Notes: generated by a model not told the origin, from the letters alone. 64,000 nt of DNA from Planctomycetota bacterium (GCA_016207825.1 JACQZI010000027.1:66929-130928), one strand, 5' to 3'; shown: positions 3,568 to 30,556, counted from the stretch's first letter. Numbers and translations: made by a program.

Positions 3568-3572
3568 TCCGC

Positions 3573-3779
3573 TTAGGCCTTTTCCGCTTTTCCGTTCTTG
3601 ATAATCAATCCGTTCTCGCCGATATCGTTATTTTCTTCCGCGGGGTCTTCCTTTGAACCGGCGCTTTTGCCGCAGGAAGGACAGGTGTAATGTTTGCTCG
3701 GTAATTCTTTGCCATCTTTAATAACCGTAATGGCAAAAGGCGGCAGGCTTACTCCGCAACGCATACAGAAAGTGACCAT
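3573..3779 (-). CDS. small zinc-ribbon protein
   Basis: 68 aa with CxxC...CxxC (CMRCG...CPSCG). Confidence 0.4.
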   Translation of the reverse strand: MVTFCMRCGVSLPPFAITVIKDGKELPSKHYTCPSCGKSAGSKEDPAEENNDIGENGLIIKNGKAEKA

Positions 3780-3790
3780 ATTTTTTTCTC

Positions 3791-6604: not shown

Positions 6605-8827
6605 ATGCTTGATTTATCTGTTGTCATTATAAACCGCAATACCCGGGATTCTGTTTTAGAGTGCTTGTCATCAATCGCAAATAATGTTAAAGAAATTACC
6701 TGTGAAATAATAGTGGTGGATAATAATTCCACGGATGGCAGCGTTCAGGCGATAAAGGAAAAGCATCCGCAGGTAAAAATACTGGAAAATGAATCCAACG
6801 TCGGTTTTGCCTATGCGGTAAATCAGGGTTTGAAGGAGGCAAAAGGACGTTATTACCTGAGCCTTAACAGCGATACGCAGCTTACCCCGGGCGCTTTGGA
6901 GAAAATGGTCCGGTTTATGGATGAAAACCTGTCCGTCGGTATGGCCGGCGCGCAGTTGGTTAAAGAAAACGGAGAGCCGCAAAACTCATTCGATAATTTC
7001 CCCGGAATTATTTCCACCTTGTTCAATAAAAGCGTGTTACGGTTGCTATTCCCATCCAGCTATGCTGGTAAAAATATCGCCCGTGATGAGGGTATCCCTT
7101 TTGAAGTGGAATCGCTGGTCGGCGCCTGCATGATAATCCGGCCTTCGGCGTTGGACAAGACAGGCTGGTTTGACCAGGATTATTTCGTTTTCCTGGAAGA
7201 AACAGATTTATGCCTCAGGATGCGCAAAGCTGGTCTGAAAGTAATGGTTATCCCTCAAGCCAAGGTGTTCCATTTCCAGGGCGAAACTAAAAAACAGACC
7301 CTGATACCGGCAAAAGTGGAATATCTCGTGTCTCTTTACAAATATTTTCGCAAGAATAGTTCTCTTTCTGTTTACCGGATAATCAGGATCACTTATCCTT
7401 TCCGTTTATTATGCCAGTCTGTTTTTACCTTTATAGGGTGTGTCTTTACCATCGGGCTGGTTAAACATGTAAGAATTCAATGCTATACATATTCTTATCT
7501 TTTCCTTTGGCATCTTTTATGGTGCCCTGAAGAGATGAGCCTGAAAGGAATCAGCGAAAAACTTAAGCAAATGCCCAAAACCGTGCCTATTAAGTGGGTT
7601 ATCCAGGATGTCTATCTGGATACGGATGATTTGCCGGTAGAGCTTGATATAAACCGGATGCCTTACAAACAGGGGTTTGAAAGCACATTGCTGAAAGAGA
7701 CCAGGCTAAAAAGGCTGGTAAGATTTAAAACCCCCTTGGGGCGCAGTTACCTTATAAAAATGTATAAGGATATTCATCCTTTCAGTTGGCTGAAAAACAG
7801 GGTAAGCGGAGATAAAGCAATGAGGGATTTGGTTCTTGCCAGGAAGATTTCTTATCTTGGCATTCCCAATGTCGTTCCCGTGGCCGTCGGATTTAACGAC
7901 AAATTGCCATGGACGCCGAAGTATTATATCGCGGTAACGAGAGAACTTGAAAATGCCTGCGGATTAAACAACTACCTTTCGCGCCATCCGCTTGCGGCAT
8001 ACCTGCCGTATAATCAGAACATAAGGAGAAGGGTGGTTAAGGCTTGGGGACAGATGGCAGGCAAGATACATCAGCGTGGAATCCTGCAAGATGATTTTGA
8101 CCCTAACAATATTGTCCTGCAGTTTAAAGGGGGAGACGCAGAGTTCTATCTTTTCCTGGTGGATTTTGAAAGGGTAAAAATACTTAAAAAGCTTTTGCTT
8201 AACCAGCAAATACACAGTCTGGCAAAACTGAGCCGTTTAAGCGTAGGGATTAACAATACGGACCGCCTGACATTTTTAAAGGGCTATCTTAATACGGATA
8301 ATAAAACAATAATCAAAACATGGATAAAACAGATTAAAAAAGAGTATGATAATAACAAGCTAAAAGATTATTTATGGGCGGAAAAAGTAAGCCTTTTGGA
8401 AAGCAGCCGTATCGGAAGGCATAACACCAAAGAGTTCACGGTATTCTACCGTAAGAAATATCCGGAGAATATGAGGCCGGGTTTTAACGAAAGCGAAATT
8501 ATTGCTTTGCTTCGGCGAATAAAAGAGGGGAATACCGTTTTCGGCCCTTTTATGTTTATCAGGGGAAATAAAGAAGTCGTTGGGTTGTCGGCAAAAGCGT
8601 TCCCCCATTACAAAACAGCAAAAAATATATGGCAAAATCTGAATGCTTTATTGAGGATTTATACCGTGCCGGCACTTCCGGTTGCGTTGATAAAGGATAA
8701 AAAGAGTTTTAATAAAGGAATAATCGTCTTCGAGCCGATAAACCTAAATCGCTATGTTTCCGGGTTCTTCGTCAATCCAAAGATTCAAGAAAGATTGACA
8801 GGAATAAATAATATTGGTATAAAGTGA
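6605..8827 (+). CDS. fusion protein: family-2 glycosyltransferase (N-term) + lipopolysaccharide-kinase (Kdo/WaaP)-like domain (C-term)
   Basis: N-term: LSVVIINRNTRD...VVDNNSTDGS...DTQL (GT2 DxD region). A central hydrophobic segment follows. C-term: kinase-like catalytic region QDDFDPNNIVL and FLVDFE (an HRD/DFG-like arrangement typical of the PF06293 LPS kinase family). Confidence 0.6.
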   Translation: MLDLSVVIINRNTRDSVLECLSSIANNVKEITCEIIVVDNNSTDGSVQAIKEKHPQVKILENESNVGFAYAVNQGLKEAKGRYYLSLNSDTQLTPGALEKMVRFMDENLSVGMAGAQLVKENGEPQNSFDNFPGIISTLFNKSVLRLLFPSSYAGKNIARDEGIPFEVESLVGACMIIRPSALDKTGWFDQDYFVFLEETDLCLRMRKAGLKVMVIPQAKVFHFQGETKKQTLIPAKVEYLVSLYKYFRKNSSLSVYRIIRITYPFRLLCQSVFTFIGCVFTIGLVKHVRIQCYTYSYLFLWHLLWCPEEMSLKGISEKLKQMPKTVPIKWVIQDVYLDTDDLPVELDINRMPYKQGFESTLLKETRLKRLVRFKTPLGRSYLIKMYKDIHPFSWLKNRVSGDKAMRDLVLARKISYLGIPNVVPVAVGFNDKLPWTPKYYIAVTRELENACGLNNYLSRHPLAAYLPYNQNIRRRVVKAWGQMAGKIHQRGILQDDFDPNNIVLQFKGGDAEFYLFLVDFERVKILKKLLLNQQIHSLAKLSRLSVGINNTDRLTFLKGYLNTDNKTIIKTWIKQIKKEYDNNKLKDYLWAEKVSLLESSRIGRHNTKEFTVFYRKKYPENMRPGFNESEIIALLRRIKEGNTVFGPFMFIRGNKEVVGLSAKAFPHYKTAKNIWQNLNALLRIYTVPALPVALIKDKKSFNKGIIVFEPINLNRYVSGFFVNPKIQERLTGINNIGIK

Positions 8828-15964: not shown

Positions 15965-17602
15965 ATGATGACAAGGCTTTTTAAGATGCTACCGGTGTTT
16001 TTGCTGGTTTTGGCAATGGCGGCTGACGCAATCGGACAGGAAAAAATCACCAAAGAGGAAAACGACAGATGCGTCGTGATTATAATGGTCTATGACGGGG
16101 AAGACACCTTTATCGGCAAAGGGACCGGCTTTATCGTGAAAGAGGACGGCCTGGTCGCGACTAATTTCCATGTGATAAGCGAGGCAAAATCCATAAAAGC
16201 CAAGGCAATCGACGGCAGCGTATATAAAGCCAAAGGTGTCGTCTTTGCCGATGCTACCAAGGATTTGGCTGTCCTGAAAATAGACGCCCAAAATCTGCCC
16301 TGCGTGGTATTGGGCGATTCGGATAAGCTGGGCAAAGATGACGAAGTCTACGTCATCGGCTCGCCCGGCATGGAAGAAAAACATGTATTTTCCAAGGGGA
16401 AGATAATCCGCATAAATGACCCTTCCCGGATGTCCAATTGCATCCAGATAAACGCCGGGGCTTCATTCGGGAGCAGCGGTTCCCCGCTCTTTGACAGGGA
16501 AGGGCGGGTCGTCGGCATCGTTTCCGAGGCTTCGGATGTCGTCCAAAGCCGTAATTTTGCCATACCGATAAACCTTATCAAGGATAAAATAAACAATGAT
16601 AAAGTAAAAACTTTGGATGAAGTGCTGACCGGCGATTACCCGGAATACTGGTTTTGGAAAGGCGAGGCTTATGAGCTGCAGGAGGATTACCCGCAGGCGA
16701 TGGAGTGTTACAATAAGGCGCTTGGCTTGCGGAAAGATTACGCAGAGGCATATTTCCATCTCGGGTTGGTGTATGACGCATTGGGTAAAGAAGAAGATGC
16801 CTTTAAACATTTCAGCCGGGCCGTGGAATTGCGCCGGGATGATACCCTGATGATAATGAATTTAGCCGCCTCTTATGATACCTCCGGCAACGCCCAAAAG
16901 GCGATTGAACTCCTGGAAGGCGCGATTAAGCTCGAACCGGAATTTTCCGGCTTGTATTACACCCTGGGCGTTATTTACGGCAAGATGAAAAAGACGGATA
17001 TGGCGCTTAAGTATTACAAGGAAGCGCTCGAGTTATACCCGGATTATTCAGACGCGCTCTGTAATCTCGGCGTCATTTACAAGGACGCCGGCAATATCAA
17101 GGAAGCGGCGGATTGCTTCAAGCGGACAATAGAAATAAACCCAAAAGACGATATCGCCTGCTATCATTTGGGGGTGATATATTATGATTCCAGGCAATAC
17201 AAGCAGGCGCGCGACCTTTTCAAAGTGGCGGTTGTTGCCGATAAAAACAACCATGAATATTACCGCTACCTGGCGTTATCCTACGGCAGGCTGGGCGCGT
17301 TCAAGGAATCTATCCAAGGGTTTGAAAACGCCATCCGCCTTAAGCCGGATTTCACTTCGGCCTATTGCGGGCTGGGCGCGGTCTATAGCGTCATGGGCAA
17401 ATATGACGAAGCAATCGCGGTCTTCCAAAAGGCCGTGAAGCTGGACCCAAAGATGGATTCGCTCCATATGAACCTGGGGAGCATTTACCTGGCCAAAAAC
17501 GATATTGAATCAGCGGAAAAGGAATATGAGGCGCTCGAAAAGCTGAATAAAGAAATGGCGAACAGCCTGCTGGAGATGATAAATAAGAAAAGAAAGGAAT
17601 GA
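15965..17602 (+). CDS. trypsin-like (S1C/DegP-type) serine protease fused to C-terminal TPR repeats
   Basis: Signal peptide. Catalytic-triad context (TNFHVI; DLAVLKID; GSSGSPLFD). About 9 TPR-like repeats in the C-terminal half (AxxYxxLGxxY pattern). Confidence 0.75.
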   Translation: MMTRLFKMLPVFLLVLAMAADAIGQEKITKEENDRCVVIIMVYDGEDTFIGKGTGFIVKEDGLVATNFHVISEAKSIKAKAIDGSVYKAKGVVFADATKDLAVLKIDAQNLPCVVLGDSDKLGKDDEVYVIGSPGMEEKHVFSKGKIIRINDPSRMSNCIQINAGASFGSSGSPLFDREGRVVGIVSEASDVVQSRNFAIPINLIKDKINNDKVKTLDEVLTGDYPEYWFWKGEAYELQEDYPQAMECYNKALGLRKDYAEAYFHLGLVYDALGKEEDAFKHFSRAVELRRDDTLMIMNLAASYDTSGNAQKAIELLEGAIKLEPEFSGLYYTLGVIYGKMKKTDMALKYYKEALELYPDYSDALCNLGVIYKDAGNIKEAADCFKRTIEINPKDDIACYHLGVIYYDSRQYKQARDLFKVAVVADKNNHEYYRYLALSYGRLGAFKESIQGFENAIRLKPDFTSAYCGLGAVYSVMGKYDEAIAVFQKAVKLDPKMDSLHMNLGSIYLAKNDIESAEKEYEALEKLNKEMANSLLEMINKKRKE

Positions 17603-17770
17603 GCCCTGCGGGGCGATTAGTTGTCGGCAATCAGTTATTAGCGTCTGCCGAATAAAAGGAGATAAAGTGTGAAGAAACTGATATTCCTGGCTCTTCTCTT
17701 GAGCATCCTCGGAATTACACGTCTAATCAACTTATCAACGTATGAACTTATGGGTTTTTAGCAAACTTTC

Positions 17771-18541
17771 TTATTTAATCACGAAATAGATTTCCGGGAC
17801 GGGATTAGCTTTCGGCCAGGCCGCCCGTTCGGCTTCCGCCGGGAACTTGAAAGAAGGAAAACGTTTCAGGATTAAGACCTCACAATCCGCGCAGAGCGGT
17901 GTAATGCGGCTCCGCGGGTCCATCACGCATTTCTTAACCGGCTTATCCGGCTGTCCCTTGTAAGGATACTCGTCCGGCAGGTGGAACATGGAGTGGTTAA
18001 ACTCGTGGAGGATTCCCGCGCCAAAAACTCTTAGCCCGATATCGGGTGATTTATCCCCGCCGATATCCAAAAGGTTCACGCCGACGGTAATCAGCCCGCC
18101 GAAATAGGCATGCCCGCCCTGATTCTGCGCCATCTTTTCGAGTGTTAGATATGCCTTGTCGCCGTTATTCAGGAGAATCACTTTCTTTATGAACATATTA
18201 CCGTAGGTATCGTTCCAGATAAGCTGGGAAAACCTCTGCAGTCCTTTCTTGAGCTTATCAATATCTTCCGGGGTGGCGTCGTATTTTATGGCCGCGTTCA
18301 TGCAGAGTCCCACCGGCGCGGCTTGGGAGTAGAAAATCTTGGGAACCCCGTTTTCATCCAGCTTAAAGCCTTTTAACTCTTCATCCGCCATCCATTCGCC
18401 GTCTATCATTTGGAAACCCCGCGCCTGCATGGCGTGCATCATGTAATCTTCCGAAGTCAGGCCGGGTGCGGTGGGTTTACTCTGGCAGGCGTTAAGGATA
18501 ATCAATCCGCTTAATAAAGCGGGCAGCATAACCTTTTTCAT
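17771..18541 (-). CDS. lipoprotein, peptidase M64 (IgA-peptidase)-like zinc metalloprotease
   Basis: Lipobox LLSGLIILNAC. HEFNHSMFHLPDEY matches the M64 HExxH...DEY signature. Confidence 0.55.
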   Translation of the reverse strand: MKKVMLPALLSGLIILNACQSKPTAPGLTSEDYMMHAMQARGFQMIDGEWMADEELKGFKLDENGVPKIFYSQAAPVGLCMNAAIKYDATPEDIDKLKKGLQRFSQLIWNDTYGNMFIKKVILLNNGDKAYLTLEKMAQNQGGHAYFGGLITVGVNLLDIGGDKSPDIGLRVFGAGILHEFNHSMFHLPDEYPYKGQPDKPVKKCVMDPRSRITPLCADCEVLILKRFPSFKFPAEAERAAWPKANPVPEIYFVIK

Positions 18542-18699
18542 ATAACGAATCCTTTCAATTATTAAATGAATGGAAGTTTAATATAGAAGCTGGGTATCGT
18601 TCTGTCAACAGAAATGCTTGAGTTTGTCGAAGATGACAACATTGTAATGTTTTATCCTTCCACTTATTCTTAATCTTATTTTGCTTCTTACTTAAATCG

Positions 18700-18960
18700 T
18701 TTTTCCGGCAGGGGGAGGTGGGCTTTTCGTGAGAGGGGAACAAGCCGTTTGGGAGAGGGGTCTGGCCATTCGCAATGGGGAATTAAGCCTGCCAAAGAGA
18801 CGGGAATAAATCTTTTAATAGGGGAGTCTGGCTGATTTGGGGGAGGGAAATAGCCGGCACGGGAGGGGGTTCTGGCTGGCAAGAGACGCCGGTTTATGCC
18901 GTTTGAGAGGGGAGTCTCGCCTGGCTAAAACGGGGATTAGGCGATTTTAGTAGGGGGGTA
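18700..18960. repeat. G-rich degenerate direct-repeat array (GAGAGGGGTCTGGCC-like units)
   Basis: Units: gagaggggaacaagcc, gagaggggtctggcc, aggggagtctggctg, gagggggttctggctgg, gagaggggagtctcgcctggc. gccgtttgg+gagagggg recurs ~135 bp apart. Ends in the palindrome aggggggta(N11)tacccccct. Confidence 0.55.
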
Positions 18961-19046
18961 TATACCCTACCTACCCCCCTATCACAGCCTTTTTTCCCGA
19001 AAATTATAGTTGACATGTTTCCGCTGATTTGATAAAGTAAACAACT

Positions 19047-19523
19047 ATGCCGAAACTAAAAATATATTTGGATTCATCCGTTCCAAGCGCTTATTATGAT
19101 AAGCAAAAACCGGCGCGTCAAAAGATTACTCAAAAATGGTGGGACGAAGTGATGAAGCGGGATTATACGGTTTATATATCACAGGTAACGGAAACCGAGT
19201 TAAATGCGACTAAAAATTTGCATTTACGCGAAAACCTGCGTAATTTAGTCGGAAATCTGCCTGTTTTGGAAATACCTGACAACGCAAAAGGGTTAGCCGA
19301 ATTGTATATTGAAAATGATATTATACCGGACGAGTACTTTAACGATGCGCTTCATATTGCCGTTGCCACATTAAACGGGATAAATATTCTGGCAAGTTGG
19401 AACTTTGTCCACCTGGTTAATCTTGAAACCAGGAGGAAAGTTAAGGGGATAAACCTGGTAAAAGGATATAACGAAATTGATATTGCCAGTCCGGAAGAAT
19501 TAGGAGGAGGAAAATATGTCTAA
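19047..19523 (+). CDS. PIN domain protein (PIN_3/TIGR00305-like putative toxin)
   Basis: N-terminal IYLDSSV, and a C-terminal PDEYFNDALHIAVATLNGINILASWNFVHL that resembles the PIN_3 acidic-residue pattern. Sits in the low-GC region. Confidence 0.45.
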   Translation: MPKLKIYLDSSVPSAYYDKQKPARQKITQKWWDEVMKRDYTVYISQVTETELNATKNLHLRENLRNLVGNLPVLEIPDNAKGLAELYIENDIIPDEYFNDALHIAVATLNGINILASWNFVHLVNLETRRKVKGINLVKGYNEIDIASPEELGGGKYV

Positions 19524-19686
19524 AACACTTCAAAAAGTAAACCCGGCAGTTGAGTTTGCAAACGACCCGATGCTTCAGGAATTACATAAAACCAGAATTA
19601 AAATCTATTCGGAAATAAAAAACACGGATGAGCAGTCGCTGAAGAAATATTTCCAGAAGAAATCTAATGAATTCCGGAAGAAATAA
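19516..19686 (+). CDS. small hypothetical protein (56 aa) overlapping the PIN gene stop by 8 nt
   Basis: MSKTLQKVNPAVEFANDPMLQELHKTRIKIYSEIKNTDEQSLKKYFQKKSNEFRKK, with GGAGGAGG RBS upstream. Possible partner of the PIN protein. Confidence 0.35.
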   Translation: MSKTLQKVNPAVEFANDPMLQELHKTRIKIYSEIKNTDEQSLKKYFQKKSNEFRKK

Positions 19687-19843
19687 AGGTGGAATACGAT
19701 AATTGAAATGGACACTCCGAACCACACCGGTATTCCTTAAACTGTATACCCCCTATTCCTACCTAATTCTGTATTTTCAGCCATAGGCTAATTCCAGCCT
19801 ATAGATGTGCAATTTGTTATAAAATAGTTATATCTGCTTGATT

Positions 19844-20194
19844 TTACCACTCAAATTTAGCCGCTATTTCTCCATCAACCATAACCATACAAACCATTCC
19901 TGATTGTCCTAACAACGATGTGGTTTTAGTTAAAACCGCTGTGACTTTATGTCCATCATGAGTTCCTTCCAATGTTTTCGAACTAGAGAAAGCCCCTACA
20001 GCACTTTTAATAACTTCTGTTCCATTTATCGTAATTGTTACTACTCCGGTTGTTTTATTCCAATTTCCGTTAATTTGCCATGCTGCGGAAGTACTCCCAG
20101 CAGGGCGATAACTGGATGAGCTTGACGCACTACACCCGTTAAATAAAAAGAATAAAACCGCAATGCTGACGAATACAACTATTAGTTTTTTCAT
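19844..20194 (-). CDS. small lipoprotein, hypothetical
   Basis: MKKLIVVFVSIAVLFFLFNGC lipobox. 116 aa, no recognised domain. Confidence 0.4.
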   Translation of the reverse strand: MKKLIVVFVSIAVLFFLFNGCSASSSSSYRPAGSTSAAWQINGNWNKTTGVVTITINGTEVIKSAVGAFSSSKTLEGTHDGHKVTAVLTKTTSLLGQSGMVCMVMVDGEIAAKFEW

Positions 20195-20291
20195 ACCATT
20201 TCCTTTCATTAAATACTTAATTTAAAGCAACCGTGGTTAGCAAGAAGGCCGCATTTCCCTATGCGACCCTCTTGCTTTATTTGCCCATAAA

Positions 20292-20699
20292 CTATTTCTG
20301 AGCTTTTTCCTTTTCAATTGTTTCCCAAACAAGAGGCGATATTTCATTTTTAGCAACCTTACTTTCGTTCAAACAGCCATTAATCACCTCAACTTTGTAG
20401 CAACCATCGTTACGCACGACATAACAAGGGGTATTCCCTGACGCATAATCTTTAAGGTCTTGTTCCAAACCGCTTCCGTACCCTGATTTTCTCGCATAAA
20501 TCGCACCATCCGCGAAATCAATAATTAACCAAAGACCGCCGCTAGTCAGTAGGTCAAGGACAACATAACCAAATTGAACATTTCCTCTTTCGTGAGGTTT
20601 TTTGGTGCCATCTAGAATAGTTGCACAATTTATATTTGCTATTAAAAGCATCGCAATTACAAGCAATATCAGCGAAACAACCAATCGGTTTTTTGACAT
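20292..20699 (-). CDS. small lipoprotein, hypothetical
   Basis: MSKNRLVVSLILLVIAMLLIANINC lipobox. 135 aa. Confidence 0.4.
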   Translation of the reverse strand: MSKNRLVVSLILLVIAMLLIANINCATILDGTKKPHERGNVQFGYVVLDLLTSGGLWLIIDFADGAIYARKSGYGSGLEQDLKDYASGNTPCYVVRNDGCYKVEVINGCLNESKVAKNEISPLVWETIEKEKAQK

Positions 20700-20976
20700 A
20701 CCTATTTCTCCTTTACTTGTTTGGTTTTCTTGAATTAAAATGTGTTGAGCTTTCAAGAGGTTTCAACACTTAACCCCTCAAACGGACAGGCCTTACAGAG
20801 ATATTATGTTAATTAATACCACCTCCTTTCGCCTGATGAATTGGGTAAACTGATAGAAATAAGTTTAATAGAGAGGAAAAGAATAGGGAGGGAATTATAG
20901 TAATTTGTCTCATAAACTCTGCCCGCCTTTTAGCCCAATAAAAAAGGGCAAGGAACCACTGCTGGATTTTACCGCT

Positions 20977-21076
20977 TTCCATCCGCCAAGACTTCCAGAC
21001 GGACCAGCATGAGTGGCACCCCGCCCCAAAGGGCAGAGTCCCCGTCTGGAATTCACAAATTGTTGGCGGATGGAAA
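20977..21076. repeat. imperfect ~26-bp inverted repeat (ttccatccgccaagacttccagacgg / ccgtctggaattcacaaattgttggcggatggaa) with ~40-nt GC-rich spacer
   Basis: Seen directly. Lies in the divergent intergenic region upstream of the 21172 gene. Confidence 0.55.
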
Positions 21077-21171
21077 TACTTTTTCTTTTGCCTTTAATGG
21101 TATTAACTAAGGCAAGAAAAGTCAAGATAAAAATTGTTTTTATACAGTATTTTGGTATACTTAAAATCTAT

Positions 21172-22353
21172 ATGACTGATTATGTAACCGCCGACACCAT
21201 ACGGGGAGATTTACAGGGATATGCGCCCATTGCCAATACTCTAATACAAATAGGCGATAATGCATTTAGCGACCTTGACCGATTTTTTAAGGGAATCACA
21301 ATAGAACCTTATATTTGGATTGATAAGAAATCGGGCTTTACCGAAAATGATATTTATGACTTAACATATAAGCTATATAATTTCAATGTTACACTTATAC
21401 AATTGCTTTGGAATTTATCCAGTGTAAACAATTTAACGGCGTTTCCTGATATTAATTCAATAATTGGTGCTTTAGATGATTGCATAAAGCAAGGCGCTCA
21501 ATTTCAGGGGAGAATAAGTATATTACATAATAAAGTCAGCCCTGATAAAGAGAGAGAAAAAATAGGAGGGTGTGTACAAGGCGGAACAGAGGAACATAAA
21601 AAATTAGACTATCTTCATAGAATATTCCAATTAAAGACTATTTTTGACAGACGAATAGATATTATTAATAAACAATTCCCAAACATTATTGACCGTTTGA
21701 ATGAAATAATAAATGTAAGTTATGCGAAAAAAGATATAATGGCTCAAGAAACAAAAACACCGCCAGTGGGTTCGCGAATTACTATCCGTCTTGTTGAAAA
21801 AGGGCATAAATTAACTGTAAATGGTGATAAATTAGAAAGTACTCCAAAACTTCTTTCCAATATCATTTGCGCACGGGCTTATGGAGTGCAAACCGCTGAA
21901 GCCTTAGTAAAGGCATCCGCCAAGTTTATGCGTAATGTCTTTCGTCCTAATTGTAAAGTTGGACGGACTAAATGGGACATCAAAAACCAGAAGAAAAATT
22001 TAGGGCGGGAAATAAAACGGATAAACAGCCTATTTCCTCAGCCAATAATAAAGTGGGATAAAAAGAATGCAGAGTGGATACAAGCAGGCGAACAATATAT
22101 TAATTTTCAGAAAGAAAGCAGTAATAAATTGTTATCTCCGAATGAACTGAGAGATTTTATTCAGCCATACCTTTCCAGCGTCAGACGTACCAGCGAAGAA
22201 GTCAGGAAAAGCAAGACTGTTTCACCCAAGAGTAAAACCTTTACGACGTCCCCTGATAAAATAGATTATGCGGCTAATCCTTCCAAAGAGAGTATTCAAA
22301 AACGTAGAGAAGGCAAGAAAGCTTACGAAGAATCAGACGACGATAACAATTAA
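21172..22353 (+). CDS. hypothetical protein (393 aa), low-GC, no recognised domain
   Basis: Long ORF with AT-rich codon usage, unlike its neighbours. Lys-rich C-terminus. The ORF-track N-terminal extension from 21013 overlaps the inverted repeat and is probably not coding. Confidence 0.45.
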   Translation: MTDYVTADTIRGDLQGYAPIANTLIQIGDNAFSDLDRFFKGITIEPYIWIDKKSGFTENDIYDLTYKLYNFNVTLIQLLWNLSSVNNLTAFPDINSIIGALDDCIKQGAQFQGRISILHNKVSPDKEREKIGGCVQGGTEEHKKLDYLHRIFQLKTIFDRRIDIINKQFPNIIDRLNEIINVSYAKKDIMAQETKTPPVGSRITIRLVEKGHKLTVNGDKLESTPKLLSNIICARAYGVQTAEALVKASAKFMRNVFRPNCKVGRTKWDIKNQKKNLGREIKRINSLFPQPIIKWDKKNAEWIQAGEQYINFQKESSNKLLSPNELRDFIQPYLSSVRRTSEEVRKSKTVSPKSKTFTTSPDKIDYAANPSKESIQKRREGKKAYEESDDDNN

Positions 22354-22592
22354 CCTCCTACTGATAATATTATATTAACCGTCTCAAGGTAATACATATT
22401 ACCCCCGGTGTAAACTGCTTTACACCGTTTTCCCATCCTATCGAGCTTTAAAACATATTCATAACTCCTTATTACATCTTAAGATAAAAATTCGCATGTT
22501 TTTTTCAGCTTCTATACATTTTTTCTCCGTTACCCCCTTTTTTACGCCTATATAACTGAGGAGAGATATAACTCTCCCAGAAAGGAGTTCCT

Positions 22593-22838
22593 ATGATGAA
22601 CTATATAGGTTCACGGATATTAGCCAAGGCGGTGGAAAAGGGAATCATCAGCGAAATTGAGGCGGAGATAGTAGTAAAGAATGCCTGCTATGAGCGGTCT
22701 TTTATTTACATCTCTTTGGAATTGAGTATGCCCACTAAAGTAGCAGAACGGCTTTATAATGGAGCAATCCCGAAACTAAGAAAGTGGCTCCATAAAGAAG
22801 TTATAATAATGCCAAGAGGGAAGATTATCTGCGATTAA
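22593..22838 (+). CDS. hypothetical protein (81 aa)
   Basis: ORF with an upstream GGAG. No recognised motif. Confidence 0.3.
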   Translation: MMNYIGSRILAKAVEKGIISEIEAEIVVKNACYERSFIYISLELSMPTKVAERLYNGAIPKLRKWLHKEVIIMPRGKIICD

Positions 22839-23136
22839 GAGTTCTGCCGGGGAGAGCCGGGATAGAAGGCGCTCTCCTTTCTGTCCCGCCCGGCTGACTA
22901 CTTTTGAATGGCTACCTGTTAATGCCTGTTACGGGCAAAGTCATGGAAACTAAACAGGCGAAAACTATTATGAAAAAGAGTTTTTGGAAGCGAATCATAA
23001 GAGCGGTTTTAGAAATCGTTCTTACCGTGGTTCGTAACAGGGCTAAAAAGTAATTAGCCAAAAGCGCAAAGTAAAAAGCCCTGAACCATGCCCCCGCTAA
23101 AGACGTGGTCAGGTATCAGGGCGGGAGGATATTACG

Positions 23137-23934
23137 ATGAGTATAATAAAAATGCATCTGATTTTAGCCATTAACCCATTGACCCAGGCAGTCGCCAAAA
23201 TCGGCAAGATATGGGCAGACGGCTTGAGTAACAATGCGGAGAAAATGGATGACCGCATCAAAACAAGTATCCCGGATGAAATGACCTATCTTTCCAAGCT
23301 GGCGGATACTTCCGAACTGGAATTCCGCCGGGTGATTGACCCATCCTTTACCAACCGTAAAGGCGAGGATAAGAATAAGATTAATGCCACACAGGCATAT
23401 AAAATCAGGAAGTCTTATCCAAAATACCAGCGGAACCGGACCCATATGTTCGAGACCGTTGACGGCGTTACTGCCAAGCGGTTTAAGGACAGGGTTCAGG
23501 CATCACAGGATACCTATGCGGAAAGGGTAAGCGAAACGACCCTCGCCTTTACCGGCATAAAGAGCCTGGAATCAGGCCCGGCAAGGATTGTGATATTCTG
23601 GCTGACCGGCGACCCCAAGGCGCGCGGGTTAATCAGGCCTGCCGACCGGATTATGGCGCCGAGCGAGCCTTTCAGCGTTACCACGCCGGAGAAAAGGAAC
23701 CTTTTAAGGCAGGCGCTTTCCACCCGCTTAATCCAGAGCGGGATGCGGATTGTCCATTCGGCTCTGTCTGGCTCCATCATCACGGAGATGAATAATGTGG
23801 GCAATTCGGTAGTCCAGGGATATCTTGACCCATCTTTAGGGCTGGAGTCCTTTACTCCGGGCGGGGCGAGCCATCTTGACTTTATCAAGGAGAATGGGCA
23901 GTTGTTCCTTTCTGTTAAGGTTAGTCAGGTGTAA
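23137..23934 (+). CDS. hypothetical protein (265 aa)
   Basis: ORF with no recognised domain. Followed by the hairpin ccccccgacatccgtcggggg. Confidence 0.4.
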   Translation: MSIIKMHLILAINPLTQAVAKIGKIWADGLSNNAEKMDDRIKTSIPDEMTYLSKLADTSELEFRRVIDPSFTNRKGEDKNKINATQAYKIRKSYPKYQRNRTHMFETVDGVTAKRFKDRVQASQDTYAERVSETTLAFTGIKSLESGPARIVIFWLTGDPKARGLIRPADRIMAPSEPFSVTTPEKRNLLRQALSTRLIQSGMRIVHSALSGSIITEMNNVGNSVVQGYLDPSLGLESFTPGGASHLDFIKENGQLFLSVKVSQV

Positions 23935-24305
23935 ACCAGTAGCGAGTAGCGAGACGGCCCCCCGACATCCGTCGGGGGACGCCTGATAAATGTTAAACGG
24001 GTAGAGGCGGGTTGATAAGAGAGGGCGGGGTTTATCCCGCCCTCTTTCTTTATAGGATTTGGACCAAATATATGCCATCTTTCACTTGACAAATAAGCGT
24101 TATTTTGAGATTATACGCAATAATTTTAACACTAAAACACGAAACTGGAATATGAAACACGGAAGAATTATTTCGTGCCCCATTCTGGGACTCCCTATTA
24201 CGGTACGCCCCACGTGCGGGGCTGACCGCCGAGGGGTCGGGTGTCCCCGAAGCAAAGCGGAGTGGGGCTTTCGTGATAGCTTCTGTGTTTTCGTGTAGAA
24301 GCCCT

Positions 24306-26687
24306 ATGAAATATAATATGCTTAAATGGTTTTGGGTCTGCTTTTTCCTGGTTGCCTTAGCCCTGCCTTTTTCCCGGGCGGAGGAAAAGGATGAGGGTAA
24401 AATAATCAGGAAAGTGGAAGTCATCGGCCTGGAGCGCCATGCCCAATCCGAAATCGCCACCCATATCCAGTCCGCGGAAAACGCCCCCTTTTCCTATAAG
24501 ACCTTCCAGGAAGATATCCAGCGCCTGAATGACACCGGCATCTTCAGTTCCATCAACTGGGAAATCATGCCCATGGATGACGGCGTAAAGATTATCATCT
24601 ACGTCAAGGAAAACGAAATAGTCGAGAATATTTATTACGACGGCTTTGCCCACGTGAACGTCAAAACACTGGTGAATGATTTAAAGCTTAAGACAGACGG
24701 CCCTTTCAACGAGTATTATCTCCTGAGCGATAAGAAGCTCCTGGAAGAGGAATACCGGAAGAAAGGCTACCATTTCGCCGAGGTGACCGTTAAAAAATCC
24801 AAGGGCCTGCGCGGCGTCCTTATCATCTATTCCGTGCGCGAAGGGCCGGCCGTCCGGGTCAACCGGATAACCATCACCGGCAACAAGTCTTTCCCCAAAA
24901 GGCGCGTCCTGCTCATTTTCCCCAAGCACCCGATTATGGGCAAGATGCGGACCAAGGAAAGCCACTGGTATGGAAGCCATTATTTTGTGGAATCCGAGGT
25001 ATTCGTCGACCTTTCGCTCATCGAGAATTTTTACCGCGACGAAGGCTGGCTGGATGCCGCCGCTTTTGTCGGCGATATGGTATTTACGGAAAAGAAGGAC
25101 AGGGTGAATATCAATATTAATATCGTGGAAGGCGCCCGCTATTTTATCCGGAAAATAGACGTGGTCGGGAACGCGAGCATCCCGACCGGGGAGCTTTTAA
25201 AGGATTTGACGATGAAAGAAGGCTCGGCTTACCGGATGGAAGAGGTGGTCAGGGCAATCAAGGTGATGCGCCGCCGTTACGGGAAGCTGGGGATGATAGA
25301 TTGCATGATAGAGCCGCGCATGCATTACCCGCAGGAAGGCACGCTGGATTTGACTTTCCATATTGACGAATGCGGCAAGAAATACCTGGGCAAACTTAAT
25401 ATTACCGGCAACCATAAAACCAAAGATAAGGTAATCCGCCGCGAGTTTACCATTCATCCGGGAGAGCTTTTGGATTATGAGAAGGTGGAAGCGAGCCTCG
25501 ACCGGGTGGGCGCGACGATGTTTTTCCAGCAGGTAAAGCCGCCGGAGTTCGATGACGGTTACGGGGAAAACGTTAAAGACATGAACCTGGAAATAGAAGA
25601 GGGCCCCACGGGCAGCCTCAATATCGGCGGCGGTTTCAGCTCGAACAGCGGCTTCGGCGGGATGCTTTCCATTACGCAGAATAATTTCGATATTGCCCGG
25701 ACGCCGGAAAGTGTCGGCCAGTTTTTCACGGGCGGCTCGTTTGCCGGGGGCGGTCAGCGGTTTGCGATTACCCTGCGCCCGGGAGTGAAGCTGACCCAAT
25801 TCAGCATACAGTTTGTGGAACCGTACTTATTCGATAAGCCCCTGATGCTGGGCGCTAACTATTCGATATGGGACCGCAACTGGATAGATTATTCCGAAAC
25901 GCGCTCGACGACCGGGCTGTCGCTCGACCGGCGCTTTAAAGGCGGGCTGATAATCGGGTGCGACATGAATTTCCAGTATATCGATATTTCCCAGGTGGAT
26001 GACGATGCCTCTTCCATCATACAGGATTTGGAAGGGACGGACCGCGCGAATGCAATCATTCCTGCAATCACTTTTGACAGGCGTAATTTCCGGCTCCTGC
26101 CGACCAAGGGCTACCGCTTGCACCTGGAAAACTCTTTTACCGGCGGGTTTATGGGCGGTGATTTCGACTTCATGAAAACCGTCTTCCGGGCGGAAAGCTA
26201 CTTCCCGATTATCGAGGAGCAGAATAAGCTTATCTGTAATATGATATTCAGGTTAGGGCGCGTTGTGAATACGTCCGATACGGAAGAAGTTCCGTTTTAC
26301 GAAAAGTTCTATGCCGGCGGCACGGATACGGTCAGGGGTTTTGATTACCGGACCATCAGTCCCAAGGACCCCGGTGATAACGATTTATCGATTGGCGGGC
26401 TGGTTTATAACGTGGTAAACTTGGAGGTGACTTATCCTTTATACCGGGGTGATGAAACCACCAAGCCTTTTGAAATACCGCGCTTCGTGATGTTTGTCGA
26501 TGCGGGCAATGTCGCCGATAAGATACAAGACCTGACCGCGGATACATACCGTGTTTCCTGGGGCTTTGGTTTCAGGATGTACCTGGGCGGTTCGGTCCCG
26601 ATAAACCTTTTTGCCGGATTCCCCTTGAAGATGGAAGACGGCGACGATCGCGATACGATACAGTTTGATATCGGATTTATGTATTAA
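24306..26687 (+). CDS. bamA: outer membrane protein assembly factor BamA (Omp85)
   Basis: Signal peptide, POTRA-like repeats, and a C-terminal 16-strand beta-barrel (GxxGGxxxxxGxG..., terminal F-rich motif IGFMY). Confidence 0.88.
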   Translation: MKYNMLKWFWVCFFLVALALPFSRAEEKDEGKIIRKVEVIGLERHAQSEIATHIQSAENAPFSYKTFQEDIQRLNDTGIFSSINWEIMPMDDGVKIIIYVKENEIVENIYYDGFAHVNVKTLVNDLKLKTDGPFNEYYLLSDKKLLEEEYRKKGYHFAEVTVKKSKGLRGVLIIYSVREGPAVRVNRITITGNKSFPKRRVLLIFPKHPIMGKMRTKESHWYGSHYFVESEVFVDLSLIENFYRDEGWLDAAAFVGDMVFTEKKDRVNININIVEGARYFIRKIDVVGNASIPTGELLKDLTMKEGSAYRMEEVVRAIKVMRRRYGKLGMIDCMIEPRMHYPQEGTLDLTFHIDECGKKYLGKLNITGNHKTKDKVIRREFTIHPGELLDYEKVEASLDRVGATMFFQQVKPPEFDDGYGENVKDMNLEIEEGPTGSLNIGGGFSSNSGFGGMLSITQNNFDIARTPESVGQFFTGGSFAGGGQRFAITLRPGVKLTQFSIQFVEPYLFDKPLMLGANYSIWDRNWIDYSETRSTTGLSLDRRFKGGLIIGCDMNFQYIDISQVDDDASSIIQDLEGTDRANAIIPAITFDRRNFRLLPTKGYRLHLENSFTGGFMGGDFDFMKTVFRAESYFPIIEEQNKLICNMIFRLGRVVNTSDTEEVPFYEKFYAGGTDTVRGFDYRTISPKDPGDNDLSIGGLVYNVVNLEVTYPLYRGDETTKPFEIPRFVMFVDAGNVADKIQDLTADTYRVSWGFGFRMYLGGSVPINLFAGFPLKMEDGDDRDTIQFDIGFMY

Positions 26688-26793
26688 TGATTAGTTAATG
26701 AAAATCCCAGCCAAACTGCGGTTGGGATAAGACGCTGTAACAGTCTTTGGCTACTTCGTATCCAAAGCCTTAACAGCCTCTAAGGAGGAGAAT

Positions 26794-27429
26794 ATGAAAA
26801 AGCTATTAGCAATGGCGTTGATAACCCTGGTGATAGTGGCAGCCGGTAAACTGACTTGGTTAAGCGGACAGGCAGCGGAAACCCCGCCGGTTCCGCCCGT
26901 GCCGCCGGTTCCCGCGCCAGCCCCGGCCGGGATTAAAATCGGGGTGGTTAATATTTTCGATGTGTTCAGCAAGTTCAAAAAACGCGATGCTTACCAGAAA
27001 GAACTAAGCAAGGAAGAAGCCGAAGAATACAGGAGCTGGAAAAAGGATTACGATGATGTCATAATGGAAAACCAGAAGTTGATGGAAGAAAACAACGACC
27101 CGAACAGCGATTTATGGGCGACCCTTTCCAGCCGCATAGAAACGCTCAGGATGCAGAAGGAACAGCGCATTAAGTTGTGGCGTAAACGGATGAACAAGAA
27201 AATCAATACCCAGATGGCGCAGCTTTATAATGAAGTCCGTGAAACCATAGATGCTTACGGCAAGGAAAAAGGTTTTGCGCTGATACTTAAAACAGAACCG
27301 GACCGCATCGTGAATTCCAATAACCAGGATGAAGACGCCCAGATGGGGATTAATTTCCGGACGGTTCTTTTCAGCCAGGGCGCCGTTGATATTACCGCCG
27401 ATATCATTAAGAAACTTAACGGAGAATGA
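26794..27429 (+). CDS. skp: OmpH/Skp periplasmic chaperone
   Basis: Signal peptide. A (PPVP)x3 linker. IGVVNIxxVFSKF and a coiled-coil Skp-like body. Canonical position between bamA and lpxD. Confidence 0.75.
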   Translation: MKKLLAMALITLVIVAAGKLTWLSGQAAETPPVPPVPPVPAPAPAGIKIGVVNIFDVFSKFKKRDAYQKELSKEEAEEYRSWKKDYDDVIMENQKLMEENNDPNSDLWATLSSRIETLRMQKEQRIKLWRKRMNKKINTQMAQLYNEVRETIDAYGKEKGFALILKTEPDRIVNSNNQDEDAQMGINFRTVLFSQGAVDITADIIKKLNGE

Positions 27430-27432
27430 TTT

Positions 27433-28434
27433 GTGCAGGTTAATGTTTCGCAATTAGCCCGTTTGGTTAACGGGAAGGTTTCCGGGAACGGGAATGCGGC
27501 GATAAGCGGGTTTGCCGGCATAAACGAAGCGCGCAAGGGCGATGTCACTTTTATCGCCAACGATAAATATATCGGATGCCTTAAAGCGACGAGGGCTTCG
27601 GCCGTGGTCGTTTCCGCCAAGCTTAAAGCCAAGACGAATATTCCTTTAATCCGCACGAAGAACCCGGATTTTGCATTTATTAAGATTGCGGAATATTTTA
27701 GTTTAAACCGGGCGGCCTTTAAGCCCGGCATCCACCGGACGGTGATTGTCGGGGCGAATGCCCGGATAAGCCCTTCGGCGGCCGTGCAGGCGTATGTCAC
27801 AATCGGGGAAGGAACGAGAATCGGCAGCCGGACAGAAATATATCCGAATGTTTATATCGGCAAAAACGTAACCATCGGGGATAATTGCCTGGTTTACGCG
27901 AACGTATCCATACGGGAAGGAACCGTCATCGGCAACAATGTGATTATCCATAGCGGGACGGTCATCGGTTCGGACGGATTCGGTTACGCGCAAATCGGTC
28001 GGAGACGCTATAAAATTCCGCAGACGGGAATCGTGGTGATAGAAGACGACGTGGAAATCGGGGCGAATGTCACCATTGACCGGGCGCGGTTTGATAAAAC
28101 AGTTATCGGGAAAGGAACCAAGATTGATAACCTGGTGCATATCGCACATAATGTGGTTATCGGAGAGGATTCCGTCTTGGTCGCCCAGGTGGGGATTTCC
28201 GGCAGTGCCCGCTTGGGAAAGAACGTTACCATGGCGGGTCAGTCGGCAACGGTCGGCCATATTTCCATCGGGGATAATGTGATGGTTGCCGGGCGGTCGG
28301 TGGTGACCAAGAATATTCCTTCGGGGGCGGTTATTTCCGGCTTCCCTGCGCAATTGCACAAGAAGCAATTGAAGCAGGAGGCGTTAATCAGAAGACTGCC
28401 CGAATTATATAAGTCCTTGAAAAACAGGAAGTAA
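27433..28434 (+). CDS. lpxD: UDP-3-O-(3-hydroxyacyl)glucosamine N-acyltransferase
   Basis: LpxD N-terminal domain plus extensive left-handed beta-helix hexapeptide repeats. Confidence 0.9.
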
Positions 28435-28444
28435 TTTAGTTTAT

Positions 28445-29743
28445 ATGATGCAGTCAACAATCGGAAAAGCGGTTTCGTTCGAAGGAGTGGGCGTATTTTC
28501 CGGGAACAAGGTCAAGATAACCCTTGCGCCGGCCGCTCCGGATACGGGCGTTGTTTTTATCCGAAGCGACCTGAAAGACAGCCCGCGCATCCCGGCGACG
28601 GTTGATTTTGCCCAGACCAGATATCGCCATACCTGCCTGGTAAACAATGACGCATCGGTTGAGACGGTCGAGCATTTACTTGCATCCTTGCACGGATTCG
28701 GGATTGATAATTTGGAAATAACCATAGACGCGCCTGAATTGCCGGTGGGCGACGGCAGTGCGAATGAATTCATTAAGCTCCTTCAATCGGCGGGTAAGGT
28801 CATGCAGGATTCTGCCAGGAAGGAATTTGCCCTTAAAGCGCCCGTGGCGATAGAAAAGAACGGGGTTTCTTTGGTGGCACTGCCTTCGGATGATAAGCTG
28901 ACCGTTGATTATACTTTAAAATACGATGCGCCGATAATCGGGACGCAGAACATGAGGGTTTCTGTCAACCAGGACGAGTTCTTGAGGGAAATCGCGCCGG
29001 CAAGGACTTTTTGCCTGGCGGAAGAAATAGAACAGTTTAACAAAATGGGGCTGGGCAAGGGCGGCTCATATAAAAATACGTTGGTGGTGGATAAAGACAA
29101 GGTCGTGGATAACGAACTGCGTTTCCCCAACGAGTTTGTTCGCCATAAGATACTTGATTTAATCGGCGATTTATTTTTACTGAATGTTTCCCTTAAAGCG
29201 CACATCATTGCTTTGAAGACCGGGCATGAGGATAATCTTAACCTGGTAAAGGCGCTGCACGGCGTGATAAATTCAATCCAGCCCGCGTATCCGGCGAAAA
29301 GGGAAACGCTTTTGGACGTAAGGGAAATACAAAATATCTTGCCGCACCGCTATCCTTTTTTATTGATAGACAAAGTAATCAAGATGGAAGGATATTCGCG
29401 GGTGGTTGGCTTGAAGAACGCGACGGCAAACGAGCATTTTTTCCAGGGGCATTTCCCGGGGCAGCCGGTAATGCCGGCGGTTTTGCAGTTGGAGGCGATG
29501 GCGCAGCTTGCCGGGGTGCTTTTATTGCGCCGGGCGGGAAATGAGAAGAAACTCGGGATTCTGATGGCGATAGATGGCGCAAAACTGAGGAAATCGGTCG
29601 TTCCGGGTGACCAGCTGTTTATCGAGGCTGAAACTATCCGTTATAAGACAAGAACGGCGGAAGTCCACGGGAAAATATTGGTTGATGGCGAGCTCGTTTC
29701 CGAGGCTGATTTTAAGTTTATGCTGGTAGATAAGGAAAACTAA
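28445..29743 (+). CDS. lpxC/fabZ: bifunctional UDP-3-O-acyl-GlcNAc deacetylase / 3-hydroxyacyl-ACP dehydratase (LpxC-FabZ fusion)
   Basis: N-terminal LpxC (TVEHLLASL, HKILDLIGDL). C-terminal FabZ hot-dog (LPHRYPFLLIDKV...HFFQGHFPGQPVMPAVLQLEAMAQ). Confidence 0.9.
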   Translation: MMQSTIGKAVSFEGVGVFSGNKVKITLAPAAPDTGVVFIRSDLKDSPRIPATVDFAQTRYRHTCLVNNDASVETVEHLLASLHGFGIDNLEITIDAPELPVGDGSANEFIKLLQSAGKVMQDSARKEFALKAPVAIEKNGVSLVALPSDDKLTVDYTLKYDAPIIGTQNMRVSVNQDEFLREIAPARTFCLAEEIEQFNKMGLGKGGSYKNTLVVDKDKVVDNELRFPNEFVRHKILDLIGDLFLLNVSLKAHIIALKTGHEDNLNLVKALHGVINSIQPAYPAKRETLLDVREIQNILPHRYPFLLIDKVIKMEGYSRVVGLKNATANEHFFQGHFPGQPVMPAVLQLEAMAQLAGVLLLRRAGNEKKLGILMAIDGAKLRKSVVPGDQLFIEAETIRYKTRTAEVHGKILVDGELVSEADFKFMLVDKEN

Positions 29744-29746
29744 AGT

Positions 29747-30556
29747 ATGGCTAATATTCATTCTACCGCGGTTGTTTCTCCCAAGGCGCAACTGGATCCG
29801 GATGTGGAAATAGGCGCTTATGCCTTTATCGGGGACGATGTTATTATCGGAGCGGGTACGAAAATATGGAATCACGTAACCATTACCGGCCACACCACGA
29901 TAGGCAAAAATAACAAGATTCTTCCTTACGCGGCAATCGGGCTGGCGCCGCAGGATTTGACTTATAAAGACGAGCCGACTCAGGTTATTATCGGGGACAA
30001 CAATACCATCAGGGAATTCGTCACGGTTAATCTGGGGGCGGTAAAGGGGGAAAGCAAAACGGTTATCGGTAATAATAATCTTATCATGGCGTACAGTCAT
30101 ATCGCGCATGATTGCATTTTGGAAGACAATATCGTGATGGCCAATTCCGTCCAGCTGGCCGGGCATGTCAAGGTGGAGAAATGCGTTTCTTTCAGCGGGC
30201 TGGCCGGGGTGCATCATTTTACCACCATCGGGGAATATTCATTCGTCGGCGGGGTCAGCCGGATTGTGCAGGATGTCCCGCCTTTTATGATGGTGCACGG
30301 AAATCCGGCAAGGGTCCGGGCGGTGAATATTATCGGGCTGGAGCGGCGCGGCTTTTCCGCGGAAGCCGTTAAGGCAATCAAGAGTGCTTACAAGCTTATC
30401 TGGCATTCCAAAAATACGCCGATGCAGGCGATAAGAATGCTGGAAAAGCAGAAGGATAACCTGCCGGAAGTTAATACTTTGATTCAATTCGTGAAGAGCG
30501 CGCAAAAAGGGGTGGAAGGAAGAGCCAAGGAGCTGCTTCGTAAAAAAGGTTTTTAA
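29747..30556 (+). CDS. lpxA: acyl-ACP--UDP-N-acetylglucosamine O-acyltransferase
   Basis: IHSTAVVSPKAQL, hexapeptide repeats, and an LpxA C-terminal helical domain. Confidence 0.9.
   Translation: MANIHSTAVVSPKAQLDPDVEIGAYAFIGDDVIIGAGTKIWNHVTITGHTTIGKNNKILPYAAIGLAPQDLTYKDEPTQVIIGDNNTIREFVTVNLGAVKGESKTVIGNNNLIMAYSHIAHDCILEDNIVMANSVQLAGHVKVEKCVSFSGLAGVHHFTTIGEYSFVGGVSRIVQDVPPFMMVHGNPARVRAVNIIGLERRGFSAEAVKAIKSAYKLIWHSKNTPMQAIRMLEKQKDNLPEVNTLIQFVKSAQKGVEGRAKELLRKKGF

Follow-up and report, generated by a model that had tools for sequence, protein, structure and literature searches.

The closest described relatives of the locus considered here belong to three kinds of system. The first are the VapBC Type II toxin–antitoxin modules, in which, canonically, the gene for the antitoxin precedes that for the VapC toxin. 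The second are genomic islands and islets, short accessory segments with atypical composition and orphan genes, associated with an integrase, a tRNA target and flanking direct repeats. The third are modules in which an extracytoplasmic function (ECF) sigma factor and its anti-sigma factor are associated with a membrane protease; the σE–RseA–DegS system serves as our comparison. The locus in question occupies positions 19047–23934 of a 64,000-nucleotide stretch of DNA from a Planctomycetota bacterium (GCA_016207825.1 JACQZI010000027.1:66929-130928), referred to below as ‘the window’. A first-pass annotation had described this segment as a single low-GC cassette, horizontally acquired, and had suggested that it might be a toxin–antitoxin, abortive-infection or defence module. 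We find that it is very probably something different: a mosaic accessory islet of three units. These are a toxin–antitoxin-like gene pair (unit 1), two genes for small envelope proteins on the opposite strand (unit 2), and a recurrent three-gene cassette anchored by an undescribed protein family (unit 3). The features are as follows, with the strand and, for genes, the GC content at third codon positions (GC3).

19010–19038, +, promoter-like TTGACA-17-TAAAGT with extended TG, 9 nt ahead of the first PIN codon
19047–19523, +, 158-aa PIN-domain protein of VapC type, putative RNase toxin; GC3 0.38
19516–19686, +, 56-aa open reading frame (ORF) that shares 8 nt with the end of the PIN gene, putative antitoxin or translationally coupled partner; GC3 0.44
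19844–20194, −, 116-aa small lipoprotein-like protein, signal peptide then LFNGC, ORF extending to 20209; GC3 0.29
20292–20699, −, 135-aa small envelope or lipoprotein-like protein with ANINC, ORF extending to 20756; GC3 0.33
20976–21076, no strand assigned, nested GC-rich hairpin of ~100 nt in the intergenic stretch from which the lipoprotein gene and the 393-aa gene diverge
21172–22353, +, 393-aa modular protein, N-terminal half of long helices, C-terminal ~200 aa a conserved domain, acidic tail; GC3 0.30
22407–22426, +, conserved 8-bp palindrome GGTGTAAA-CTGC-TTTACACC followed by a T-rich run, candidate terminator of the 393-aa gene and/or operator
22593–22838, +, 81-aa small protein, conserved cassette member; GC3 0.45
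22846–22894, +, conserved structured element upstream of the 265-aa gene, with counterparts at 4511–4559 of locus L004 and 2335–2383 of locus L008
22904–23053, +, 49-aa ORF of uncertain reality, from the ORF list
23137–23934, +, 265-aa protein of an undescribed family, conserved anchor of the cassette, native composition; GC 0.506, GC3 0.62

By sequence comparison, the genes for the 393-, 81- and 265-aa proteins are a self-contained cassette that recurs at unrelated chromosomal sites. Searches with tblastn and BLASTP recovered the same order in L004 and L008, both metagenomic contigs: a 393-like gene, a gene for an 87-aa protein 65% (L004) or 68% (L008) identical to the 81-aa protein, and a gene for a 264-aa protein 62–63% identical to the 265-aa protein. 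The flanks differ between copies; in L004 they are HicAB and, at the opposite end, a deacetylase, gyrA and recA. The 393-aa protein is itself composite. Its N-terminal half is 69% identical to protein P0002, and its C-terminal half is 45% identical to P0003, 38% to a 428-aa protein of L004 and 31% to the homologue in L008, all three of which carry a different, Cys-rich N-terminal module. Relatives of the 393-aa protein are few: 3 clusters by single-sequence search, and 6 by profile search, among 5.8 billion proteins. The first-pass annotation had recognized no motif in the 393-, 81- and 265-aa proteins, and scans of Pfam, NCBIfam, PHROGs and PADLOC, which returned no matches for any of them, agree; nor did the 81-aa protein match anything in the PDB.

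The 135-aa protein of unit 2 is 58% identical to an ORF of locus L002 that lies divergently upstream of the P0002 gene, an arrangement which indicates that the 135-aa gene and the gene for the N-terminal half of the 393-aa protein travel together. The 393- and 265-aa proteins are identical to HY811_10150 and HY811_10160 at NCBI, and the source of the window is a Planctomycetes metagenome-assembled genome (MAG). The sole contig found to share both flanks of the islet, Logan contig L001, is 100% identical to window positions 17019–30238, and so adds no independent comparison.

Composition was judged against the 42 other long ORFs of the window (GC 0.466 ± 0.036; GC3 0.532 ± 0.069). From about 19.0 to 22.6 kb the GC content falls to 0.32–0.40, versus about 0.46–0.51 on either side. 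The PIN gene, the 56-aa ORF (low in GC, z = −3.2), both lipoprotein genes and the 393-aa gene lie 2–3.5 standard deviations below the reference in GC or GC3, and the codon-adaptation score is also low for the 116-, 135- and 393-aa genes. The 81-aa gene is borderline. The 265-aa gene is host-typical (z = +1.1 to +1.3), and the GC anomaly therefore stops near 22.9 kb, short of 23934. A low-GC island had been drawn across the whole of 19047–23934, with a matching drop in codon usage. The former stands for 19.0–22.9 kb in GC and GC3, and the latter for the 116-, 135- and 393-aa genes; neither extends to the 265-aa gene. Within the cassette, moreover, GC3 rises in a step that is alike in all three copies (window, L004 and L008): 0.30, then 0.43–0.45, then 0.56–0.62. 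Since the step recurs in L004 and L008, low GC appears to be a persistent trait of the left-hand genes and not the mark of one recent transfer; this is a caution that recent horizontal transfer is not provable from low GC alone.

The islet resembles genomic islands in its atypical GC, GC3 and codon usage, its orphan genes, its toxin–antitoxin-like pair, and the presence of its pieces in other contexts. It differs from them in lacking an integrase, a tRNA target and direct repeats, in keeping its compositional step within the cassette across genomes, and in including a gene, for the 265-aa protein, that is native in composition and multi-copy. The searches behind these statements found no tRNA, tmRNA or Rfam family in 18.4–24.4 kb (Rfam even at E ≤ 1), no integrase or recombinase domain among the window proteins in Pfam, and no flanking direct repeats above chance-level matches. 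A BamA-based scan of GTDB representatives found no close relative of the source genome. The idea of a horizontally acquired cassette keeps some of its force from the atypical composition, the near-orphan genes and the homologous pieces at other chromosomal sites. Against it stand at least three units instead of one, the lack of mobility hallmarks, a 265-aa gene that is native and belongs to a resident family, and the recurrence of the GC3 step in other copies.

A first search with the 265-aa protein, the anchor of the cassette, yielded 17 clusters at 36–66% identity, of which at least five are additional paralogues from the source MAG, bringing the copies there to six or more; an exhaustive profile search yielded 243 clusters among 1.84 billion representatives. 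Two family genes can also lie a few kilobases apart, as in L029 (2044–2859, −, and 7992–8798, +) and L015 (1–816, −, and 3705–4532, +), so that the family is multi-copy locally as well as globally. The AlphaFold2 (AF2) model is confident (mean pLDDT, the model's own confidence score, 89.6), and Foldseek found no match to its fold in the PDB or BFVD (best E about 1; BFVD 1.2). Pfam and PHROG scans of 50 diverse members gave a single kind of match, a fused trypsin-like domain, and none in the core family domain; a profile search of the PDB with the family alignment likewise matched the fused protease part only. The sole candidate catalytic motif is SHxD, and its His is not conserved across the family. 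The family is thus rare, lineage-restricted and multi-copy, with a confident model that is unmatched among solved or viral structures.

Its neighbours follow a clear pattern. We surveyed 41 non-redundant loci that contain a family gene, a set that does not include the other five paralogue loci of the window's MAG, HY811_02865, HY811_06880, HY811_09510, HY811_05445 and HY811_00105. Of the 28 loci that extend far enough upstream, 11 have a gene for a membrane-anchored trypsin-like protease (Trypsin_2, E = 3e-19) immediately before the family gene, and the protease is preceded by a small Zn-ribbon protein. In three diverged members (P0029, P0037 and P0021), the frame of a trypsin-like protease that has a membrane anchor or signal at its N terminus continues into the family domain. 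Divergently transcribed genes encode an SNase nuclease, an ECF-like sigma factor (Sigma70_r2) and an anti-sigma factor in which zf-HC2 is combined with a DUF2582 winged helix; sigma-like genes are found in L005 and L047 as well. A tail-fibre-like gene (phrog_892, E = 6e-30) lies downstream in three loci, and two members (P0099 and P0119) have long C-terminal extensions past the family domain. The genes that follow the family gene are otherwise always unrelated housekeeping genes. A limited literature search found no published description of this context, and it is absent from the ECF classification paper PMC7826278.

As in ECF sigma/anti-sigma–protease modules, distant family loci have an ECF-like sigma factor, a zf-HC2 anti-sigma factor and a membrane-anchored, HtrA/DegS-like protease of trypsin fold, and in the in-frame fusions the family domain holds the C-terminal position that PDZ domains hold in HtrA proteases. 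The cassette in the window, in contrast, has neither sigma nor anti-sigma factor, and its 81-aa protein is not detectably sigma-like; the proteases linked to the family lack PDZ domains, and known sigma-regulation pathways contain no equivalent of the 265-aa family. Neighbours and fusions together tie the family to protease, sigma/anti-sigma and fibre-like partners, and so provide testable hypotheses for a block of hypothetical proteins from a phylum in which the biology of the cell envelope is poorly understood.

The AF2 model of the 393-aa protein is too poor (pLDDT 56.5) for a fold to be assigned; its C-terminal domain reaches 66–82 and shows the order hairpin, three helices, hairpin, which is possibly winged-helix-like. 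Top Foldseek matches to this model were helical-bundle noise, and the OxyR winged helix appeared only at E = 1.9. A reading of the 81-aa protein as a fragment of sigma region 4 was tried and rejected: hhalign against a set of sigma factors, using a profile of three sequences, gave a probability of 0.3%, and there was no Pfam match.

The spacers of the cassette are conserved too, to the same degree as the coding DNA or a higher one. That between the 393- and 81-aa genes is 72–74% identical to its counterparts in L004 and L008, as conserved as coding DNA. The stem of the palindrome at 22407–22426 covaries, with T..A in the window, C..G in L008 and U.G in L004, and conserved promoter-like blocks lie between it and the 81-aa gene. 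Further on, the element at 22846–22894 consists of an outer 6-bp stem, a 6-nt bulge (GAGAGC), a 12-bp stem, and a loop (CGCUCUC) complementary to the bulge. It is near-invariant in the three copies, whose flanking genes are 68–71% identical in DNA, and it folds alike in all of them (z −3.3 to −4.4). In the alignment 98% of cells are paired, with three double-sided pair changes and the 12-bp helix undisrupted; slid controls gave 35–56%. Its G.U pairs are compatible with the + strand only. In L008, a small lipoprotein gene sits between the 87-aa gene and the hairpin, and the element is accordingly assigned to the DNA that precedes the family gene. A search with a covariance model turned up no additional copies. 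As an intrinsic terminator the element has a stable stem, with a T-run of 4 nt that starts ~8 nt past it, and the consensus scan did not report it. Bulge and loop lie at opposite ends of the 12-bp helix, so an alternative pairing is likelier than a pseudoknot; their complementarity suggests such alternative pairings, and possible roles for the element are those of regulatory RNA, insulating terminator and operator. We also considered these hairpins as integron attC sites, and rejected this reading: there is no integrase, and there are no R'/R'' core sites.

Two loci place a further small gene directly before the family gene, encoding a lipoprotein or membrane protein of 87–90 aa (L008 2009–2281, 90 aa; L047 1684–1947, 87 aa). 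The 49-aa ORF at 22904–23053 may be a remnant of a gene of this sort, to judge by a similar tail (W-K, hydrophobic, R-K), a likeness seen by eye.

An accessory islet with a PIN toxin–antitoxin-like pair, the genes of unit 1, would, taken alone, be ordinary. The promoter-like site before the PIN gene agrees with the consensus at 10 of 12 positions in a consensus scan, a consensus match only. The PIN_3-like toxin gene of the first-pass annotation does encode a PIN domain, of a different family: the match is to Pfam PF01850 (PIN; E = 7e-6, 27 bits versus a cutoff of 23.6). The protein is 29–33% identical to plasmid proteins of Leptospira and Thiodictyon annotated as VapC-family toxins, and an alignment of the three shows D/E9, E51 and D100 conserved and W118–N119 invariant. 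The 8-nt overlap claimed between the PIN stop and the 56-aa ORF is present in the sequence (ATGTCTAA), and a Shine–Dalgarno-like GGAGGAGG lies just upstream of the ORF, within the C-terminal codons of the PIN gene. The relatives are arranged likewise. On the Leptospira plasmid pLiSL47, the toxin gene is followed by a gene for a 63-aa ‘hypothetical protein’ with an 8-nt stop overlap; on the Thiodictyon plasmid pTs485, an unannotated 68-aa ORF begins 8 nt before the PIN stop. These small partners are alike in position, size and overlap; their identity is weak (25–29%), and BLASTP gave no alignment between the 56-aa ORF and the Leptospira partner.

On these sequences, the PIN gene and the 56-aa ORF are a conserved toxin-first bicistron, with an 8-nt overlap kept in three phyla. 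By analogy with the family, the pair most likely acts as a toxin–antitoxin or addiction pair. It resembles VapBC modules in the VapC size of the PIN protein, the conserved acidic residues, the small coupled ORF and the accessory setting. It departs from them in that the toxin gene comes first, whereas in canonical vapBC the antitoxin does; in that the partner has no recognizable DNA-binding domain and no detectable homology to known antitoxins; and in that the fourth acidic position is an invariant Asn (N119) in the window PIN and its homologues. Partners of this kind are annotated as hypothetical or missed by databases, and the bicistron could represent a distinct VapC subtype.

The two genes of unit 2 had been called small lipoproteins. 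This is plausible for the 116-aa protein (LFNGC), and less so for the 135-aa protein, in which the lipobox (ANINC) is non-canonical; both judgments are read from the residues themselves. The 116-aa gene is also called in L001, and neither of the two products has family matches in Pfam, NCBIfam, PHROGs or PADLOC. An imperfect inverted repeat had been noted before the 393-aa gene, and it proves to be the nested hairpin at 20976–21076, with 19-nt arms that are 89% complementary and an inner 8-bp stem. Compared with shuffled sequence, its fold has z = −4.1 (+ strand) and z = −5.65 (− strand), the latter being the more stable (−62 kcal/mol). The right arm overlaps a promoter-like −35 element. None of the fetched loci contains a homologue of the hairpin, and Rfam gave no match to it. 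NCBI starts the 393-aa gene at 21070, giving 427 aa, and the ORF can be extended to 446 aa (extension region 21013–21171). The alignment with P0002 supports the start at 21172, which leaves the hairpin outside the coding sequence.

How might these parts work? The explanation we favour, three units together with their functions, we put at roughly 45%. A toxin-first, VapC-type PIN RNase gene, translationally coupled to its 56-aa partner, would form a toxin–antitoxin or addiction pair, and two small envelope (lipo)proteins would be encoded on the opposite strand. The 393-aa protein (a shuffled N-terminal module with a conserved C-terminal domain) and the 81-aa protein would be the cassette's own regulators, a role we infer from their position, the conserved palindromes and the moderate-confidence model of the C-terminal domain. 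Their genes would hold the place occupied, beside distant family members, by ECF sigma/anti-sigma pairs and sigma-like proteins. The hairpins at 22407–22426 and 22846–22894 would end or insulate upstream transcription or act as operators, and the 265-aa gene would then be expressed from a controlled promoter of its own. The 265-aa protein would be a non-enzymatic, mostly helical scaffold or adaptor, coupled elsewhere to a membrane-anchored trypsin-like protease and to fibre-like proteins. On account of that coupling, the output is most likely a protease-linked envelope or surface function, and not a toxin. This functional reading of the cassette, every function in which is inferred, is on its own doubtful.

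A number of observations weigh against this explanation. The DNA-binding role of the 393- and 81-aa proteins depends on a low-confidence model (pLDDT 56.5) and a reading of the sequence, and neither the hhalign comparison of the 81-aa protein with sigma region 4 nor the Foldseek search with the 393-aa protein bears out a regulator. The covariation of the 22846–22894 element comes from three sequences, and an equally good result was reached by 78 of 500 shuffles. Pfam gave no match above cutoff for the 56-aa ORF, and none of the antitoxin domains AbrB, RHH, PHD/YefM or HTH was found in it. No protease or fibre gene adjoins the cassette in the window; the nearest trypsin-like gene (15965–17602) is 5.5 kb away and may be unrelated. 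Finally, the proteases have an N-terminal membrane anchor or signal, and a signal peptide is missing from the free-standing family proteins. Protease and family protein would therefore occupy different compartments, unless the in-frame fusions are artefacts of gene calling or read-through.

A broader proposal, unlikely on balance, is that the 265-aa family defines an unrecognized module, so far of Planctomycetota, in which a scaffold of new fold acts together with fibre-like proteins and with a membrane-anchored trypsin-like protease that lacks a PDZ domain, and in which a dedicated sigma/anti-sigma pair exerts control; in the clade of the window, the 393/81 pair and a conserved RNA or DNA hairpin would supply that control. 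If true, this would amount to a novel type of system, either for envelope signalling coupled to proteolysis or for a surface appendage.

Of the alternatives, the one that survives best is a novel system for anti-phage defence or abortive infection, made up either of the entire block or of the PIN pair and the 393/81/265 cassette, with the 393-aa protein as modular sensor and the 265-aa protein as effector. Such a system would suit the company that the family keeps, since genes of toxin–antitoxin type adjoin the family gene not only in the window (PIN) but also in L004 (HicAB) and L007 (an AbiEii-like nucleotidyltransferase). It would suit, too, the domain shuffling of the 393-aa family, the AT-richness of the left-hand genes, and the SNase nuclease and protease of the extended cluster, the latter weakly like the protease parts of the LmuA and RT-protease models. 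We nevertheless consider it unlikely. PADLOC-DB v2 gave no match for the window proteins, save a spurious DpdE at E = 0.008, and its matches in the extended cluster are of a generic kind, to domains of proteases and nucleases. A defence gene would not usually be present as six diverged paralogues per genome with native composition; no catalytic motif is conserved in the family; and the flanks are ordinary housekeeping genes and not a defence island. Of the first-pass suggestion of a toxin–antitoxin, abortive-infection or defence module, what remains is the PIN/56-aa pair, which is of toxin–antitoxin type; the defence models offer nothing for the window proteins.

The left flank bears on another alternative and has features of its own. 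Between the gene at 17771–18541 (−) and the PIN promoter lies a repetitive tract:

18700–18975, +, degenerate G-rich tandem array with a 22-nt period, ~12 units

The best motif of the array (GGGGAGTCTGGC) occurs at 18755, 18821, 18865 and 18909, so that 4 of its 7 matches in the whole window fall inside 165 nt. Identity autocorrelation peaks at lags of 22, 44, 66, 88 and 110, with values of 0.41–0.44 versus a shuffled maximum of 0.34 ± 0.014. The period is about two helical turns, and the array looks iteron-like, or like a series of phased binding sites. Tandem Repeats Finder (TRF) did not report it. The product of the gene at 17771–18541 is lipoprotein-like, 256 aa long, and contains the motif HEFNH (HExxH). 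It had been labelled an M64 peptidase. The matches to M64 and M6 are weak and sub-threshold (E = 0.06 and 0.002, respectively), and the product is better called a probable zinc metalloprotease of uncertain family.

An array of this kind beside a toxin–antitoxin-like pair invites a second alternative, namely that the block is a decayed mobile element (a prophage, a satellite or an integrated plasmid), with the array as iterons or centromere, the PIN pair as stabilization module and the 265-aa protein as a former virion or structural protein. A plasmid replication gene does adjoin the closest annotated PIN homologue, the family is found with fibre-like and protease genes, and phages commonly have sigma factors. 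Searches of IMG/VR and INPHARED, however, found no relatives of the 265-, 393- or 81-aa proteins; for the core family, neither PHROGs nor the folds of BFVD gave a match; searches for an integrase, for Rep or Par domains, for tRNAs and for flanking direct repeats came up empty; the array was not found in any other fetched locus; and the copies of the family are old, diverged paralogues flanked by core genes. We regard this alternative as quite improbable. That nothing apart from the PIN gene is functional, the rest being spurious or decaying ORFs in AT-rich DNA, is highly improbable: the lack of domain matches, the very few homologues of the 393-aa protein and its poor AF2 model would fit, but the 81- and 265-aa proteins are 62–68% identical and in the same order in independent contigs, the 265-aa protein has a confident model (pLDDT 89.6) and a family of 243 clusters, the lipoprotein and the 393-aa N-terminal domain are kept together in L002, and the non-coding elements are conserved and covary.

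Two observations outside the islet complete the description. Window positions 15965–17602, 5.5 kb upstream of the 265-aa gene, encode a secreted protein with a trypsin-like protease domain and TPR repeats; its protease domain is 22% identical (E = 2e-6) to the proteases that neighbour other family members, and a functional link to the 265-aa gene is possible on this likeness. In the spacer between the 265-aa gene and bamA, just upstream of the latter, positions 24176–24200 and 24237–24268 are 90–92% identical to a spacer at 3492–3606 (−) of L003, a contig from the same sequencing run (SRR12113406), and this match may be a small dispersed repeat.

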